Source: an uncultured Gemmatimonadales bacterium (GTDB lineage Bacteria; Gemmatimonadota; Gemmatimonadetes; Longimicrobiales; RSA9). Taken from it: a stretch of 64,000 nt of DNA. The notes under the pieces are model-generated. The model did no database searches. It worked only from the letters and a program-made list of their open reading frames with translations, and was not told the origin of the DNA. A program made the translations under genes and the position numbers. Position 1 is the stretch's first letter. The number at the start of each line of letters is the position of its first letter. The DNA is taken from assembly GCA_963798845.1 (NCBI GenBank), contig CAWCUS010000002.1, forward strand, positions 800,001 through 864,000. Direction: 5' to 3'. Positions 16,075 through 30,783 of the stretch are shown here, piece after piece.

Positions 16075-16090
16075 GGCGGCCGCCGCCTCC

Positions 16091-16875
16091 CCGGGTCCCC
16101 GTCCCCGTCCTCCTCCCCGTTCGCCGTCCGGGTTTTCCCGCAGATGAAAGGAAAGCGCCTGAAACTGCCGTGACGTAGTCCCGTCATCGCGCGGAAGCGC
16201 CCGCCGCACTGGCCTTACCTACGGGAACTGCCGGACGCGGACGTGGAGGCGGACCGGGACGAGGAAACTACGGTGCGGCTTCCGGGCGGTTGGTTCACTC
16301 CACCGGGTCCCACCGGCGGAGGAGAGCAGTGAGCATGGCGCACACCCTGTCCGCCATGACCAGCGCCTCGTCCACTTTCTTCCGGTCCGCCAGATCGAAA
16401 AGCCGGATCTCCGTCAGGGCTGCGGCGCATTCGTTCGCGGAGGCTCGGGCGGTCACGTACCGTTCCGCTTTCGCGCCCGGCCGGTACTTGCCGGCGCCTT
16501 CCGCGATGTTGAGGTGCACGGAGCGGGCGGAGCGGAGCGCCTGGTCGCGCAGGTCCGCGCAGCCACGGGGGAGCTGAGCGCAGACCTCCCGCACGAGCCC
16601 GAGCAGATCCAGGGAGCGCGCGTGCACCTGCAGCTTCTCGAACTCGAACCGGGTCGCGGGCATGGCAGCGTGCCGGTGAGGAAGCGACGGTGTGGGCAGG
16701 GCGAGAATGCCGCTGAATCCGGGGCACGGCCATGGCTTGGCGGGCCACTTTCCATGGGCCACCCCCATCATCCTCCTCCGCGTCCCCGCCCGGCCGTTCC
16801 CGTCGGCTGCATCGGTGCGCCAGGCGCCTCGTCGCGGCGTCCGGGAAAACCAGGATGGAGACGACGCGGACCCGG
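16091..16875. repeat. Four hexamer-periodic tracts forming two nested imperfect inverted-repeat pairs around the four-helix-bundle gene
   Basis: A 16091-16140 (CCGGGTCCCCGTC...TCCGGGTTTTCCCG) matches the reverse complement of D 16842-16875 (CCGGGTCCGCGTC...TCCTGGTTTTCCCG); reverse complement of B 16222-16248 matches C 16776-16802 at 23/27. Confidence 0.7.
16295..16663 (-). CDS. Four-helix-bundle protein (23S rRNA IVS protein / Avd-like fold)
   Basis: FEKLQVHARS, DLRDQALRSARSVHLNIAEG and ARASANECAA match the family signature F..L.V...A / DQ..RA..S...NIAEG / A.GS..E. Confidence 0.9.
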   Translation of the reverse strand: MPATRFEFEKLQVHARSLDLLGLVREVCAQLPRGCADLRDQALRSARSVHLNIAEGAGKYRPGAKAERYVTARASANECAAALTEIRLFDLADRKKVDEALVMADRVCAMLTALLRRWDPVE

Positions 16876-16901
16876 AGCTACCCTTCAGGGACCGCGATCG
16901 C

Positions 16902-22745: not shown

Positions 22746-24488
22746 TCAGGCGAGGGCGCCGGGGCGATCGAGGAAGAGGGAAGCGGCGAGGTCGGGGAAC
22801 CAGGGCTGGGCCTGGAGGCAGCGTGTGAAGGGCCAGGGTCGGAGGAAGGCGACGAGGCCATCGTGCTCGGCGAGGGCGCGCTGGAGCGCGGCGCGGGCGT
22901 CATCGATCTCGCCGCGGCCGGCGTGGACCATGGCGAGGGCGAAGGGTGGGACGTAGTGTCCACGCTGCGTGGCGTTGAGGAGGCGGTGGAGGATCCTGAG
23001 GCTGCCGTGGTCGTCGCCGGCGCGGGCGAGGACGTGCCCGAGCGAAGCCAGCATGAAGGGGTTGGCGGGGGAGACGTCGAGGGCGCGGCGGAGGTGGACG
23101 GCGGCCTCGGCGGGGTTGCCCTGGAGCTCGCGGAGCATGCCGAGCTGCCAGAGTGCCTGGGGGGCGTCGGGGTCGAGCTCGAGAGTATCCCAGACGTGGC
23201 GTTCGGCGCGGTCGATGTCGCCGGCGCCGATGTGGACCCAGGCCTCGCCGGTGCCGATGGGAATCGAGACCGGGTCGAGGAGGCGGGCGCGCCGGATGGA
23301 AGCGCGGGCCTCGTCGTGCTGCTGGAGGCTGGCGTGGACGAGGCCGATGCCCCAGTGGGCGAAGGGGAGGTGCGGCGCGACGTCGCGGGCGTGGTGGAGC
23401 CGTTCGAGCGCGTCGTCCACTCGGCGGTCGTACACGTGGGCTTTCATGCCGAGGGCCACGTGGGCCTCGGGGAGGTCCGGCTCCAGGGCGAGCGCCCGGC
23501 GCGCGGCGGCTTCCCCGCGCGGAAACGCGATCTCCGGCGGGAGGTGTGCGAAGTGGCCGAGGACGCAGTAGGCCAGGGCGGTGCCGGCGTGCGCCGAGGG
23601 GGAGTCCGGGTCGAGGGCGGTGGCCCGGGTGAAGTGGGCGAGGGCGCGCTCAATGGCCTCGACGCGCCAGCGCCGGAAGTGGTAGAGCCCGCGCCGCACC
23701 TCCTCGCCGGCGGTGAGCGGGCCGGGAGGCGTGCCGCGGGCTCCACTGCCCCGGCCCGTGCCCGGGAAGAGGCCGGCCCCGGGCTCGGGCGGGATCGGCT
23801 CGACCTGGAGTGTAAGCCCGAGGTCGCCCTCCACACGACGACGCAGCCGGTCCCGTTCCGCAAGCGCTCGTCCGCGCTCGCCCGTCTCCAGGAGCAGCGC
23901 CACCAGCCGCTCGCTGCGGGGCTCGCTGAACGGATCGATCTCGAGCAATCGCCCCAGCCACCGCGCCTCCGCGTGGCGGTCCCCGTCGGCGCGGGCGTCG
24001 GCGATCAGGCGGCCGACGGCGTCCAGCACCGCACGCTCGTACCGCTGCCGGGTCTCGTCGGTCCAGCGCTCGAACTCCGGCGACTCGGATAGGTGGAACC
24101 CGTCGAGGAAAGGCCCGGTGTAGAATCCGACCACATCCCCGGGGCGGTCACCCGCCAGCGCTTCCTCCAGGGCGGACGTGTCCGCCCAGCAGCCGGCGGG
24201 CGAAAGGCACAGCGTCTCCTCCGTGTCGCACGCCAGCACGTCGCTGCCGGCCGCGTGACGAACACGGGTGAGGAGCTGGCGCAGGGCGTGCCGCGCGTGG
24301 TGGCGGTTCCGCTCGGGCCACAGCAGCGCCGTGATGAGCTCGCGACGTCGGGGCGTGCCCGGGGGCGCCGTGGCCAGGTACGCGAACAGCGCCATGATCT
24401 TCGCGCTGCCGAGGATGCCGGGGATCTCCCGGCCCCCGTCCGCCAGGACGCGTGGCGAGCCCAGCAGCCGAAGGATCAGCGTCTGCAC
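22746..24488 (-). CDS. SARP-family (OmpR-like wHTH plus BTAD) transcriptional regulator with C-terminal TPR repeats
   Basis: LRLLGSP, ALFAYLA, RELITALLWPE, ARHALRQLL, YTGPFLDGF...EFERW and IDPFSE motifs; TPR repeats follow. Confidence 0.88.
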   Translation of the reverse strand: MQTLILRLLGSPRVLADGGREIPGILGSAKIMALFAYLATAPPGTPRRRELITALLWPERNRHHARHALRQLLTRVRHAAGSDVLACDTEETLCLSPAGCWADTSALEEALAGDRPGDVVGFYTGPFLDGFHLSESPEFERWTDETRQRYERAVLDAVGRLIADARADGDRHAEARWLGRLLEIDPFSEPRSERLVALLLETGERGRALAERDRLRRRVEGDLGLTLQVEPIPPEPGAGLFPGTGRGSGARGTPPGPLTAGEEVRRGLYHFRRWRVEAIERALAHFTRATALDPDSPSAHAGTALAYCVLGHFAHLPPEIAFPRGEAAARRALALEPDLPEAHVALGMKAHVYDRRVDDALERLHHARDVAPHLPFAHWGIGLVHASLQQHDEARASIRRARLLDPVSIPIGTGEAWVHIGAGDIDRAERHVWDTLELDPDAPQALWQLGMLRELQGNPAEAAVHLRRALDVSPANPFMLASLGHVLARAGDDHGSLRILHRLLNATQRGHYVPPFALAMVHAGRGEIDDARAALQRALAEHDGLVAFLRPWPFTRCLQAQPWFPDLAASLFLDRPGALA

Positions 24489-28091: not shown

Positions 28092-29045
28092 ATGGGTCGT
28101 AACGTGCTGGTGACAGGCGGGGCGGGATTCATCGGTAGCCACGTGGCGGACGCGTTCCTGGCGGAGGGAGACCGGGTCTGGATCGTGGACGACCTGTCCA
28201 GCGGTCGGGAGTCGAATCTCCCCGGCGGTGCGGAGTTCCACCGCATGGCGATCGGCGACGAGGGGCTGAGCGAGCTCTTCGACCGGATCCGCTTCGACGT
28301 GGTGGCCCACCACGCGGCCCAGATCGACGTTCGCGTCAGCGTGGCCGATCCGCGCCGGGACGCGCGCACGAACGTGGATGGGCTCCTGAACGTGCTGGAG
28401 AACGCTCGCCGGCACCGCAGCCGCGTGGTCTACATCAGCTCGGGCGGCGTGGTGTACGGGGAGCCCGACGTCCGGCCGACACCGGAAACCGCGCCGAAGC
28501 TGCCTGCGTCCCCGTACGGCGTGACGAAGCTGGCGGGGGAGCAGTATCTGTACTACTACGCCCGGGTCCACAGCCTGGAGTATGTGGCGCTCCGCTACTC
28601 GAACGTGTACGGTCCCCGTCAGGACCCGCACGGGGAGGCCGGAGTGGTGGCGATCTTCGGGACTCGGATCCTGGGCGGGCGCCCGCTCACCGTCTTCGGA
28701 GACGGGGAGCAGACGCGCGACTACGTGTTCGTGGGCGACGTCGTGGCCGCCAACCTGGTCGCGGCCTCACTGCCGGTCGGGCCGGTGGGAACCGATCTGG
28801 ACACGCGCGCCTACAACGTGGGGACCGGGATCGAGACGTCCGTGAACACGCTGGCGGCCGAGATCATGGCCGCGGGTGAACGGGATGTGGATGTGGAGCA
28901 CGCGGCGGCGCGCCCGGGCGAGCTGCTGCACTCGTCGCTGGACATTTCGAAGCTGGAGGCGGCCGGGTGGTCGCCCCGGACGGAACTCCGCGACGGGCTG
29001 CGTCGAACGCTGGAATACCTCGAACGGGAGACGGTGAGCCGGTGA
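28092..29045 (+). CDS. NAD-dependent epimerase/dehydratase (UDP-glucose 4-epimerase-like)
   Basis: VTGGAGFIGSH, YGVTK (YxxxK), RYSNVYGPRQ and GDGEQTRDYV motifs. Confidence 0.92.
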   Translation: MGRNVLVTGGAGFIGSHVADAFLAEGDRVWIVDDLSSGRESNLPGGAEFHRMAIGDEGLSELFDRIRFDVVAHHAAQIDVRVSVADPRRDARTNVDGLLNVLENARRHRSRVVYISSGGVVYGEPDVRPTPETAPKLPASPYGVTKLAGEQYLYYYARVHSLEYVALRYSNVYGPRQDPHGEAGVVAIFGTRILGGRPLTVFGDGEQTRDYVFVGDVVAANLVAASLPVGPVGTDLDTRAYNVGTGIETSVNTLAAEIMAAGERDVDVEHAAARPGELLHSSLDISKLEAAGWSPRTELRDGLRRTLEYLERETVSR

Positions 29046-29756
29046 ACCTGATGGCACAGGCGAGGCCCGGCATGCAAGGGCCCCTGGAGATGATCCTGGG
29101 CGGGACGATCTCGACGCAGATCATCCTCGTGGTGCTGGCGGTGTTCTCCCTAGCGAGCTGGGCGGTCATGTTCTGGAAGTGGGGGCAGTTCCGGAAGCTG
29201 CGGCGCCAGGGAGTGCGCTTCCTCGCCGTCATCGAGAAGACGCAGCGGCTGCGCGACGCGTACCGGACGCTCACCCGCCTCCCGGAGTCCCCGTACACGA
29301 GCGTGTTCCGGCAGGGCCTCACCTTCTTCGACGAGCTTCGGCCTGGCACGCTGACCGGTGAAGAGAAGGCGAGCGAAGGCCTGAGCGAGTCGCAGCTGCA
29401 GGCGCTCTGGCTGGTGCTGGAGAAATCCCAGGCCGACGAGCGCGACACCCTCGCCGCCGGCCTGCCCTGGCTGGCCGTGGTCGGCTCGGTCTCCCCTCTC
29501 CTCGGCCTGCTCGGCACCGTGATCGGCGTCATGAACGCCTTTCTCGGCATCAGCGCCGTCGGGAGCGCAAACATTGGCGCCGTCGCGCCGGGCGTGGCCG
29601 AAGCGCTCGTGACCACGGTAGCCGGCCTCACCGCCGCCATTCCGGCCGTGATCGGCTACAACCTGTTCGTGAGCCGGCTCAACGCGTTCGGCGGCGAGCT
29701 CGAAGGCTTCGCGTCGGAGTTCATTCGGGACTCTCGCGAAGGAGCGACTGCTTTGA
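29042..29756 (+). CDS. tolQ: TolQ/ExbB proton channel; apparent 1-nt insertion at ~29725 (as read, the ORF runs on to 30343)
   Basis: SPLLGLLGTVIGVM and VAPGVAEALVTTVAGL.AAIPA motifs; removing one base gives ...EFIGTLAKERLL* ending at 29756. Confidence 0.9.
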
Positions 29757-30340
29757 GGGGGGCTCGGCCGCTTCGCGGCCTCGCAGAGGGGCTCGGCCTG
29801 CGGCCTCGCAGAGGGGCTCGGCCTGCGGCCTCGCAGAGGGGCTCGGCCTGCGGCCTCGCAGAGGGGCTCGGCCTGCGGCCTCGCAGAGGGGCTCGGCTTT
29901 CGGCCTCGCAGAGGGGCTCGGCCTTCGGCCTCGCAGAGGGGCTCGGCCGCCTTGCGGCCTCGCAGGCAGGCTCGGCCTTGCGGCCTCGCAGGGCGAGCGC
30001 AGCGAGCCCCACCGCGAGGCGCAGCCGAGCGCCCCTGCGAGCGCAGCGAGCCCCTCTGCGAGGCGCAGCCGAGCCCCTCTGCGAGCGAAGCGAGCCCCTC
30101 TGCGAGCGCAGCGAGCCCCTCTGCGAGCGCAGCGAGCCCCTCTGCGAGCGCAGCGAGCCCCTCTGCGAGCGAAGCGAGCCCCTCTGCGAGCGCAGCGAGC
30201 CCCTCTGCGAGCGCAGCGAGCCCCTCTGCGAGCGCAGCGAGCCCCTCTGCGAACGCCGCGAGCCCCTCTGCGCGGCCGCGACGCGGCCGCGCCCCCCTGC
30301 GGCGCCGCAACGCGCCTGGCCCGCCGCCGGAGGCGCCCCC
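29757..30340. repeat. Fold-back element: 25-bp tandem array facing a 21-bp tandem array with the same core inverted; possible MITE
   Basis: TCGCAGAGGGGCTCG x7 perfect (starts 29781-29931, 25-bp period); CGAGCCCCTCTGCGA x10 perfect (starts 30047-30238, mostly 21-bp period); degenerate units near the axis ~29992; bounded by TGA-GGGGGG and CCCCC-TGA. Confidence 0.92.
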
Positions 30341-30342
30341 TG

Positions 30343-30783
30343 ATGTGGCGTGCCTCGAGCTCGAGCGGCCGGGCGTCGCTGCCGCTCACCGCGGACATCA
30401 ACGTCACGAGCCTGGTGGACGTGGCGTTCACGCTGCTGGTGATCTTCATCATCACGGCGCCGATCCTCCAGGGCGGGGTGGAGGTGGAGCTGCCGCGGGC
30501 GGAAGCGGGGCCGATCACGCAGGGCGAGGGGGTGATCGTGAGCATGGCGGCGGACGGCAAGATCTACCTCGACGACGCGCCCATGGCGTCGCGCGAGGAG
30601 TTCCTCCAGTTCTTCCCCCAGTACATGCAGGACAACGCGGGAGAGCCGGTGTTCGTGCGGGCGGACCGGAGCGTGGCGTACGGCGAGGTGATGCAGCTGT
30701 TCTCGCTGCTGCGGCAGCTGGACGTCGCGGAAGTGAACCTCGTGCTGGAGAGCCCGCCGCGGGAGCGGCGCGGCGGCGAGTGA
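30343..30783 (+). CDS. tolR: TolR/ExbD
   Basis: INVTSLVDVAFTLLVIFIITAP and VRADRSVAYG motifs. Confidence 0.92.
   Translation: MWRASSSSGRASLPLTADINVTSLVDVAFTLLVIFIITAPILQGGVEVELPRAEAGPITQGEGVIVSMAADGKIYLDDAPMASREEFLQFFPQYMQDNAGEPVFVRADRSVAYGEVMQLFSLLRQLDVAEVNLVLESPPRERRGGE

Follow-up and report, generated by a model that had tools for sequence, protein, structure and literature searches.

To our knowledge, repeats resembling the repetitive extragenic palindromic (REP) sequences of Proteobacteria are poorly understood outside that group, and we know of no function assigned to the widespread PF05635 genes outside diversity-generating retroelements. PF05635 is the family of the "23S rRNA intervening sequence protein," a four-helix bundle, and a 23S rRNA intervening sequence with an open reading frame (ORF) for such a protein (S23p) is found in Leptospira, a further example beside that of Coxiella. 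The Coxiella sequence is described, in the consulted part of PMC4990558, as selfish and as containing an S23p ORF. REP families are characterized in the consulted part of PMC3733652 by a GTAG or CGTC tag and a preference for head-head dimers, head-tail arrays being rare, and REPINs are presented in that of PMC3116915 as inverted REP doublets linked to RAYTs. The subject of this report is a palindrome of 590 bases, consisting of two opposed runs of mini-hairpin repeats, which separates tolQ from tolR in an uncultured Gemmatimonadales bacterium (genome G000; 4.26 Mb, six contigs, approximately 70.5% GC). The window, that is, the whole stretch of 64,000 nucleotides analyzed, is C2:800001-864000 of this genome. 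With a probability of roughly 0.55, we regard the tolQ/tolR element as an old, gene-less palindromic member of a REP-like family of hairpin arrays, the complete members of which are cassettes containing a PF05635 gene; it would be maintained in trans, and its transcript would be cut. A literature search, outside which most subscription journals lie, yielded no account of this family in Gemmatimonadota and none of inverted hairpin arrays around PF05635 genes.

The features of the element, in window coordinates, are as follows.

29757..29992, minus strand: left arm, about nine units of 25 bp with the core on the minus strand (Tandem Repeats Finder (TRF), seven exact cores, unit parse)
29757..29992, plus-strand reading of the left arm: linker CAGAGGGG and hairpins GGCC-TGC/TTC-GGCC
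29946..30046, no strand: center, holding the units of each arm that are most degenerate; the two core strands meet here with their 5′ ends
29993..30300, plus strand: right arm, about 14 units of 21-23 bp, each with linker CCCCTCTG and a hairpin CGAG-C/GC-GNA-G/GC-CGAG (TRF, cores, sequence)
30238-30300, plus strand: variant long-stem units closing the right arm (sequence)
29756..30297, no strand: fold-back, an imperfect long stem in which arm pairs with arm in the single strand

TRF reports a period of 25 at 29775-29991 (8.5 copies, 92% matches) and one of 21 at 29993-30272 (13.1 copies, 92% matches). The 16-base core CGAGCCCCTCTGCGAG, allowing up to two mismatches, has 21 matches in the window where 0.27 are expected, a number reached by none of 100 shuffles. 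Seven exact copies are found on the minus strand (29780-29945), as counted in the first-pass annotation, a reading of the letters alone; on the plus strand there are nine exact copies (30047-30232), where ten had been claimed, plus four near-exact ones. The inexact matches comprise two with one mismatch, two with two, and an unrelated one at 23910. Linker mismatches, read 5′ to 3′ on the core strand, form the strings 30000000 in the left arm and 2200000000000 in the right. The stems GGC-GCA-GCC in the 23-bp units and GGCC-TGC/TTC-GGCC (plus strand) in the 25-bp units are present as annotated; the flanks of the hairpins are CGAG...CGAG rather than the CGA...GAG given there.

The stretch from approximately 29756 to approximately 30297 folds at −486.5 kcal/mol as RNA (z = −13.0) and at −288.6 kcal/mol as DNA (z = −14.1), and in neither case did any of 20 shuffles do as well. 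With the core on both strands and z at about −13, the arms do share it in opposed orientation and are able to fold back, as had been proposed. The best set of local hairpins reaches −146.9 for DNA and −276.5 for RNA, about half the stability of the global fold-back, but local hairpins are probably underestimated because GNA mini-hairpins and tandem G·A pairs receive no bonus in the energy model.

The element is one of many. With at most one mismatch, the core has 192 matches in the genome against one for the reversed control, which bears out the suggestion of a dispersed, structure-conserving family of the REP, REPIN, or MITE kind. There are no exact singleton cores, and singletons with up to two mismatches number 27 against 50 in the control. 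The copies form about 24 loci, 19 of them single arrays and five opposed pairs; arrays have 4-21 units, all head-to-tail, with unit periods of 21, 23, 25, 26, and 29 bp and higher-order periods of 44-88 bp (44, 50, 76, and 88). The longest (C2:272858-273385; 26 bp × 20) follows an M24-peptidase-like ORF which, since by eye no stop precedes the first units, may enter the array. A core-like match with up to two mismatches stands alone at C2:415033-415048, some 100 bp before the 23S rRNA gene; it is probably due to chance because singletons are at the control level. The exact core is specific to G000: 40 other genomes contain 0-3 matches each, which is the control level, and a search of 185,579 species genomes (its own excluded) gave at least 115 loci, those listed being single chance matches in unrelated taxa. 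A pattern of one unit plus linker was found in one metagenome contig (L202, with the array at the contig edge) and in no viral contig. Tandem repeats in general abound in G000, where 595 TRF rows reduce to 409 regions, of many unrelated units, many of the regions having periods of 12-100 bp and near-perfect copies.

Parsing by the linker CCCCTCTG, with omission of 18 inter-linker stretches (17 distinct) that did not begin with CG and end with G, gave 226 units of 21-30 bp containing 59 distinct hairpins. The first pair of the hairpin is C-G in all 59. Pairs two and three are tandem G·A/A·G in 45 and are jointly exchanged for G-C/C-G in 11-12; pair four is Watson-Crick in 55 (G-C 46, C-G 6, A-T 3). 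The apical stem is fully Watson-Crick in 45 of 59, a naive symmetric register over-counting the mismatches. The co-variation of hairpins expected in other copies is thus borne out, pairing being retained through compensatory changes. The tag on both sides of the hairpin is CGAG, with variants CGAA/TGAG, CGCG, and CGCC/GGCG. The unit consists of a genome-specific linker and a hairpin, in which the base, the apical pairing, and the G(N)NA loop are kept while the letters of the stem vary.

According to the consulted part of PMC13037366, very stable DNA mini-hairpins follow the consensus GCGNAGC/GCGNNAGC, with GNA or GNNA loops closed by C-G. The loops of the present family fit this consensus, as the first-pass annotation had it: a C-G-closed G..A loop, G(N)NA, stands on the core strand in 150 of 226 units (its mirror, T..C, in 12), and GC-GAA-GC and GC-GCA-GC match it exactly. 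Unlike the mini-hairpins of that source, which in its consulted part were characterized as oligonucleotides, the motif here is part of a longer hairpin with a tandem G·A base and is arrayed, and its stability is presumed. Like the REP, BIME, and REPIN sequences of Proteobacteria, as these appear in the consulted parts of PMC3733652 and PMC3116915, the units are short, high-copy, imperfect palindromes, extragenic, often after genes, and genome-specific; stem variants keep their pairing, inverted partners form a larger hairpin, and RAYT-like genes are present in the genome. Unlike them, the units possess no GTAG or CGTC tag and are confined to polar head-to-tail arrays in which a fixed linker of 8 bases recurs; they do not occur as singlets or head-head dimers. 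As regards the inverted doublets of REPINs, 5 of the 24 loci here are opposed pairs that fold back; the other 19 consist of a single arm, and neither excision nor replication was seen to occur. The G-rich heptamers of Xanthomonas and Nostoc (PMC4692102) and the tandem repeats of Borgs (PMC9879509), to the extent of the consulted parts of those papers, resemble the family as dispersed short arrays near stop codons with variable copy number in repeat-pervaded genomes, but the present units are hairpins of 21-29 bp with a conserved structure, neither 7-mers nor unstructured, and form opposed arm pairs around a gene. Unlike a CRISPR array, the units are contiguous and the variable part is a hairpin top of 5-13 bases, common to units and loci.

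The arrays adjoin stop codons, as in TGA-CCCC... where the array is in plus orientation and TAG-GGGG... where it is in minus orientation. At 17 or more of the 24 loci, as judged with a crude ORF caller, the array edge is no more than 40 bp from a stop, and by eye both array orientations follow co-directional genes. The strand with the G-rich linker is the locally G-rich one in 14 of the 19 single arrays, a weak trend (Fisher p = 0.059). Arrays are also polar in their decay. On the core strand, read 5′ to 3′, the mean number of linker mismatches falls from 0.70 in the first third of an array to 0.14 in the middle third and is 0.18 in the last; among 28 arrays or arms examined in a Hamming scan, the 5′ half was the worse in 17, the 3′ half in 4, and 7 were tied. 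All opposed pairs are of the order minus then plus (5/5 in G000, 3/3 in its relative G056), and at the opposed loci, including tolQ/tolR, the degenerate 5′ ends meet centrally, so that the pairs look as though they had grown outward.

One opposed pair, at C1:733796-734642, encloses a 136-aa PF05635 gene (C1:733965-734372; 39.9 bits; cutoff 33.8). A four-helix-bundle gene had been among the neighbors suggested for the copies and does adjoin them in such cassettes. A sequence search of the PDB with the protein gave only 2gsc_A, at a weak E of 0.019. In G001, a member of the same genus, the site holds about 100 unrelated bp. A homologous cassette in G056 (contig C2) is 67% identical in nucleotides over the gene and has its own linker; it lies at a non-orthologous place, between an ABC-transporter gene and a response-regulator gene, where the G000 counterpart is empty, and G046 has a cassette after the same ABC-transporter gene. 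Cassettes of the order minus array, PF05635 gene, plus array were seen in total seven times in five genomes of four genera (G000 C1, G056:C2, G056:C15, G071:C5, G062:C204, G046:C21, and G046:C277). The full-length copies of the family accordingly enclose a four-helix-bundle gene and, unlike REP and BIME systems, not a transposase gene; no RAYT gene is flanked.

The resemblance to 23S intervening sequences, which in the consulted part of the Coxiella paper are thought to be selfish, lies in a PF05635 gene enclosed by inverted repeats that form a long RNA stem. Unlike them, the copies here lie outside rRNA, their arms are mini-hairpin arrays rather than simple inverted repeats, many are gene-less or single-armed, and cutting by RNase III is putative. 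The single 23S gene of G000 (C2:415146-418160; 3015 nt) matches the model end to end, with none of the listed arrays inside.

The PF05635 loci of G000, G001, G005, G056, and G071 number 23 (two weak matches that had no locus being left out), with tandem arrays on both sides at 8, on one side at 7, and on neither at 8. The type of array unit differs by PF05635 clade and includes 6-13-mers, 29-34-mers, 45-mers, and hairpin units. In a tree of 20 of the proteins, from which the partial matches G005:C107, C59b, and C64 were dropped, the four flanked by arrays of the present hairpin type fall on one side of a branch with support 87/84, and one of 500 label shuffles gives as few changes. Homologs of the G000 cassette protein at E ≤1e-20 were found in G056, G046, and G062 among 60 other genomes searched. 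Five further loci have hairpin arms of the present type (G062:C204, G046:C21, and G046:C277), other repeats (G075), or none (G022). G001 (96% complete, eight contigs) possesses a single PF05635 gene, of another clade, and this coincides with decayed arrays: its remnants are a solo unit at tolQ/tolR, four mixed-linker units at a site matching, by eye, G000 C1:6440, and two units elsewhere.

Some further observations concern PF05635 genes and their repeats. The arms around the two cassette genes of G056 differ in linker, and the CCCTCCG linker of G056:C15:137427 recurs in at least one gene-less array, C15:272040-272240; this common linker hints at cognate gene-repeat pairs in that genome. The window itself contains a PF05635 gene (16328-16639, minus strand; 54.6 bits) in an intergenic island of about 800 bp (approximately 16075-16900), which has a run of GTCCCC hexamers on one side and weak inverted repeats (16121-16140/16842-16861, 85% complementary) and no hairpin arrays. 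At C6:1183393-1186100 of G000, a second family with double-hairpin units of 44-52 bp and GATTCGA-type linkers flanks, in inverted orientation, a third PF05635 gene (C6:1185657-1185971). Its units also occur at two places within the frame of a metH-like gene (B12-dependent methionine synthase), and the frame is broken across the second array, either because the gene is split or through indel errors in the array. An apparent ADYV...ADYV direct repeat around an array of the second family in the metH-like gene was rejected as a target duplication, since we take both motifs to be native parts of the MetH activation domain.

Relatives of G000 show what became of the units elsewhere; the tallies include G016, G017, G020, G026, and G063, on which no specific claim rests. 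The hairpin-base pattern exceeds its control in G000 (forward/reverse 82/107 vs. 13/22), G056 (58/70 vs. 14/11), G062 (30/9 vs. 4/1), and G071 (12/23 vs. 3/7). A 10-base linker pattern, counted in G056 and others, equaled the control. The array-bearing relatives retain GCGAG-hairpin-CGAGC, each with its own linkers: CCACCCTG/CCATACTG in G056, CCTGTTG in G005, and mixed ones in G071. Among 11 relatives examined at the tolQ/tolR junction, opposed minus-then-plus arrays of 548-767 bp are found in G005, G056, and G071, all of the sister genus (g5) and each with the linker of its own genome; the remaining eight have short, plain spacers. In each of the four spacers with arrays the strand folds back (z = −19.6, −15.5, −7.0, and −4.0 relative to mononucleotide shuffles). 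Comparison of these junctions shows that the tolQ/tolR copy has been retained since before the split of the two genera, with the linker changing along with each genome's family. The fold-back survived complete linker turnover, which argues that structure, and not sequence, is what persists. Other array sites of G000 were empty in relatives: sites A-D in G001 (4/4 checked) and sites C and D in G056. At these empty sites an unrelated GC-rich spacer stands between the stop codon and the conserved downstream block, with a single hairpin at site D.

The genes on either side of the element, which belong to a tol-pal cluster of tolQ, tolR, and a TonB_2-type gene (Pfam, 33.8 bits) followed by ORFs that we take, by eye, to be tolB and pal, are delimited as follows.

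28967..29756, plus strand: tolQ (MotA/ExbB family; Pfam PF01618, 100.7 bits)
29754..29756, plus strand: ancestral tolQ stop TGA; the array begins at the next base, and the TGA is aligned in G001, G005, G056, G071, and G021
30301..30342, plus strand: remnant of the native tolQ-tolR spacer, judged by eye to be homologous to the 3′ portion of the 66-bp G001 spacer
30329-30333, plus strand: tolR ribosome-binding site GGAGG, inside the spacer remnant
30343..30783, plus strand: tolR (ExbD/TolR family; Pfam PF02472, 88.5 bits; 90% identical to the G001 match)

As assembled, the tolQ ORF (28967-30343; 458 aa) runs through the whole element, and a TGA at 30341-30343 shares a base with the ATG of tolR. 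Every frame is open across the arrays, and five of the frames have ORFs that traverse them. The TolQ proteins of relatives end in GTLAKERLL* or GTLAREGRL* (...EFIGTLAKERLL* in G001, or ...EFIGTLAREGRL*). Removal of one base near 29724 makes the window read GTLAKERLL followed by the TGA at 29754-29756, as in G001, and a short-read contig from run X1 (depth 4.2) reads CGGGAC and then adapter beyond 29724, against TCGGGAC in the assembly. Most likely, then, the extra T in the TT run at 29724/29725 is a homopolymer error of the assembly that shifts the frame of tolQ, and the true end is ...EFIGTLAKERLL-TGA. From the ends of the relatives and the T-less short-read contig we conclude that the read-through ORF is most likely an assembly error and TGA 29754 the real stop; other long ORFs in the G000 assembly may carry similar one-base errors.

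The first-pass annotation had the element bounded by TGA-GGGGGG...CCCCC-TGA and inserted with a 3-bp TGA target duplication into a TGATG overlap of the tolQ stop and the tolR start. The bounding string is present, as TGA-GGGGGG...CCCCC-TGATG, although its TGA at 29754-29756 is out of frame with the assembled ORF. The duplication does not hold, because both TGAs already stand in G001, where only 66 bp separate the TGA that ends tolQ from CCCTGATG at the start of tolR. Nor is a TGATG overlap the ancestral junction in this clade: the G001 site is no empty TGATG but a spacer of 66 bp holding one unit-like hairpin and then TCGCAG. Unlike a MITE with target duplication, the element has not duplicated the TGA, and at sites A-D a spacer has been replaced.

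Taken with these results, the reading we prefer would run as follows. The arm pair would descend from a four-helix-bundle cassette or be maintained by one in trans, in the style of a MITE and its parent or a REPIN and its RAYT. The cassette protein would recognize the linker and hairpin base in single-stranded nucleic acid, new units would join at the outer (3′, core-strand) ends, and a trans-acting factor would keep the linker identical within a genome; the cassette protein is, we infer, a better-supported candidate for this factor than the RAYT-like proteins. In the tolQ-tolR transcript, a fold-back of about 540 nt could form a long imperfect duplex to be cut in the manner of a 23S rRNA intervening sequence by an enzyme of the RNase III type. 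By this analogy the transcript is probably processed. The tolQ mRNA would then have a structured 3′ end, tolR would keep a ribosome-binding site of its own, and the element would be tolerated or possibly used, uncoupling the dosage of the two genes. REPs between cistrons stabilize upstream mRNA, TolQ and TolR assemble 5:2, and tandem G·A pairs flanked by C-G are stable. A bolder version, which we put forward tentatively and consider doubtful as a whole, is that PF05635 proteins are dedicated partners of unnamed palindromic repeat cassettes, each lineage reading its own unit, driving polar outward addition and homogenization, and leaving behind gene-less arm pairs and single arms; the tolQ/tolR copy would then be domesticated as an RNase III-type site that sets the TolQ:TolR ratio.

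Several observations weigh against the cassette origin and its consequences. Nineteen of the 24 loci are single arms and not fold-backs, and no ORF lies between the arms of the tolQ/tolR copy. We know of no nuclease or recombinase activity in four-helix-bundle proteins, which leaves the mechanism at the DNA level unexplained. The grouping in the tree is defined by the very feature that was counted, its proteins are kin and not independent, and its branch is not strongly supported. The 8 of 23 loci flanked on both sides stand in very repeat-rich genomes (409 tandem-repeat regions in G000), where random small genes, too, may have repeats beside them. G046 has close homologs yet no clear excess of units, in a fragmented assembly. 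Where sites A-D were compared, the array stands in place of an unrelated spacer, which looks like replacement and not clean insertion, with no duplication seen, so that mobility of the gene-less arrays is hypothetical. An Rfam search of the element at E up to 1 gave no match, and pattern scans for sigma-70 promoters and intrinsic terminators found none in it; no RNA sequencing run was found to contain the locus.

Among the alternatives, a satellite independent of any protein, spreading by slippage and by unequal and ectopic recombination, with the tolQ/tolR copy a functionless neutral passenger, seems to us rather unlikely. It would account for the higher-order periods of 44, 50, 76, and 88 bp and the runs of identical units, which are typical of slippage and unequal exchange, and it suits a genome unusually rich in tandem repeats (409 regions) with orthologous sites in relatives that have no arrays. 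Unequal exchange, however, should decay both edges of an array, whereas one edge is degenerate (17 vs. 4), and it does not lead one to expect a linker that is identical over about 24 loci in one genome and different between genomes even at tolQ/tolR, double changes that keep the stem paired, or a fold-back persisting across two genera. Unlikely, too, is a classical REP/BIME-REPIN system, in which RAYT-like Y1 (HUH) transposases mobilize and homogenize units on single-stranded DNA and the four-helix-bundle genes are mere landing sites. G000 does encode three Y1/HUH paralogs of about 320 aa (C1:549772, C5:284702, and C5:399173) and one partial copy, which match the NCBIfam model REP_Tyr_transpos over its whole length, and each of the five g1 and g5 genomes has 2-4 copies. 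The loops fit the stable DNA mini-hairpin consensus, the orientation bias relative to replication strand (14/19; Fisher p = 0.059), though weak, points the same way, and the CGAG beside the hairpin recalls the GTAG/CGTC tags in the consulted part of PMC3733652. The tag is nonetheless neither of these two, and head-to-tail arrays are the rule here where that part of the source has head-tail dimers as rare in REP families. The scores (60.6 and 73 bits by hmmscan, at most 75.5 in a genome search) are below the curated cutoff of 80. The expectation that RAYT/HUH genes would adjoin the copies failed, for none of the RAYT-like genes of G000 is flanked by arrays. Such genes are found in 28 of 61 genomes of the taxonomic family, mostly without, and in no clear relation to, an excess of units; G001 has two and decayed arrays, while G062 has the excess and none of the genes.

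Three other readings were rejected on the evidence against each. In the first, which is very improbable, the GGGG of the G000 linker, recurring every 21-29 bases, would form G-quadruplexes or i-motifs with hairpin-bearing loops, a structure proposed for G-rich heptamers close to stop codons; GGGNATC repeats are placed within 50 bp of stop codons in the consulted part of PMC4692102, but the G-run is not conserved, the G056 linkers CAGTATGG and CAGTGTGG and CAACAGG of G005 having only GG, while the hairpin base is. That the arrays are coding, giving TolQ a repetitive C-terminal extension of 196 residues up to the TGA overlapping the tolR start, is hardly credible. The assembled ORF (28967-30343) is indeed open throughout the element, but the units are free of stops on both strands and are crossed by ORFs in five frames, and 25 bp is not a multiple of three; a one-base shift yields the conserved GTLAKERLL and TGA of G001, the short-read contig does not have the extra T, and in G005, G056, and G071 the tolQ stop precedes the arrays. 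A long-read fold-back or chimeric artifact, a danger raised in the first-pass annotation, is scarcely to be believed either. Only low-depth short contigs, from three metagenome runs of one study, are available, none of them spanning the element, and at least one probable one-base error lies nearby; the arms, however, differ in unit length and hairpin type, the family is common to 5 opposed and 19 single loci, and three other assemblies from the sister genus, two of them fragmented (110 and 240 contigs), show the same architecture at this junction.

For annotation, arrays open in all frames together with one-base assembly errors lead to false long ORFs, of which the 458-aa "TolQ" is an example. 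For the biology of the family, the locus offers a testable pairing, in which the genome-specific linker-hairpin units are candidate ligands for a small protein, and G000 and G001 provide a natural contrast with and without the cassette gene.

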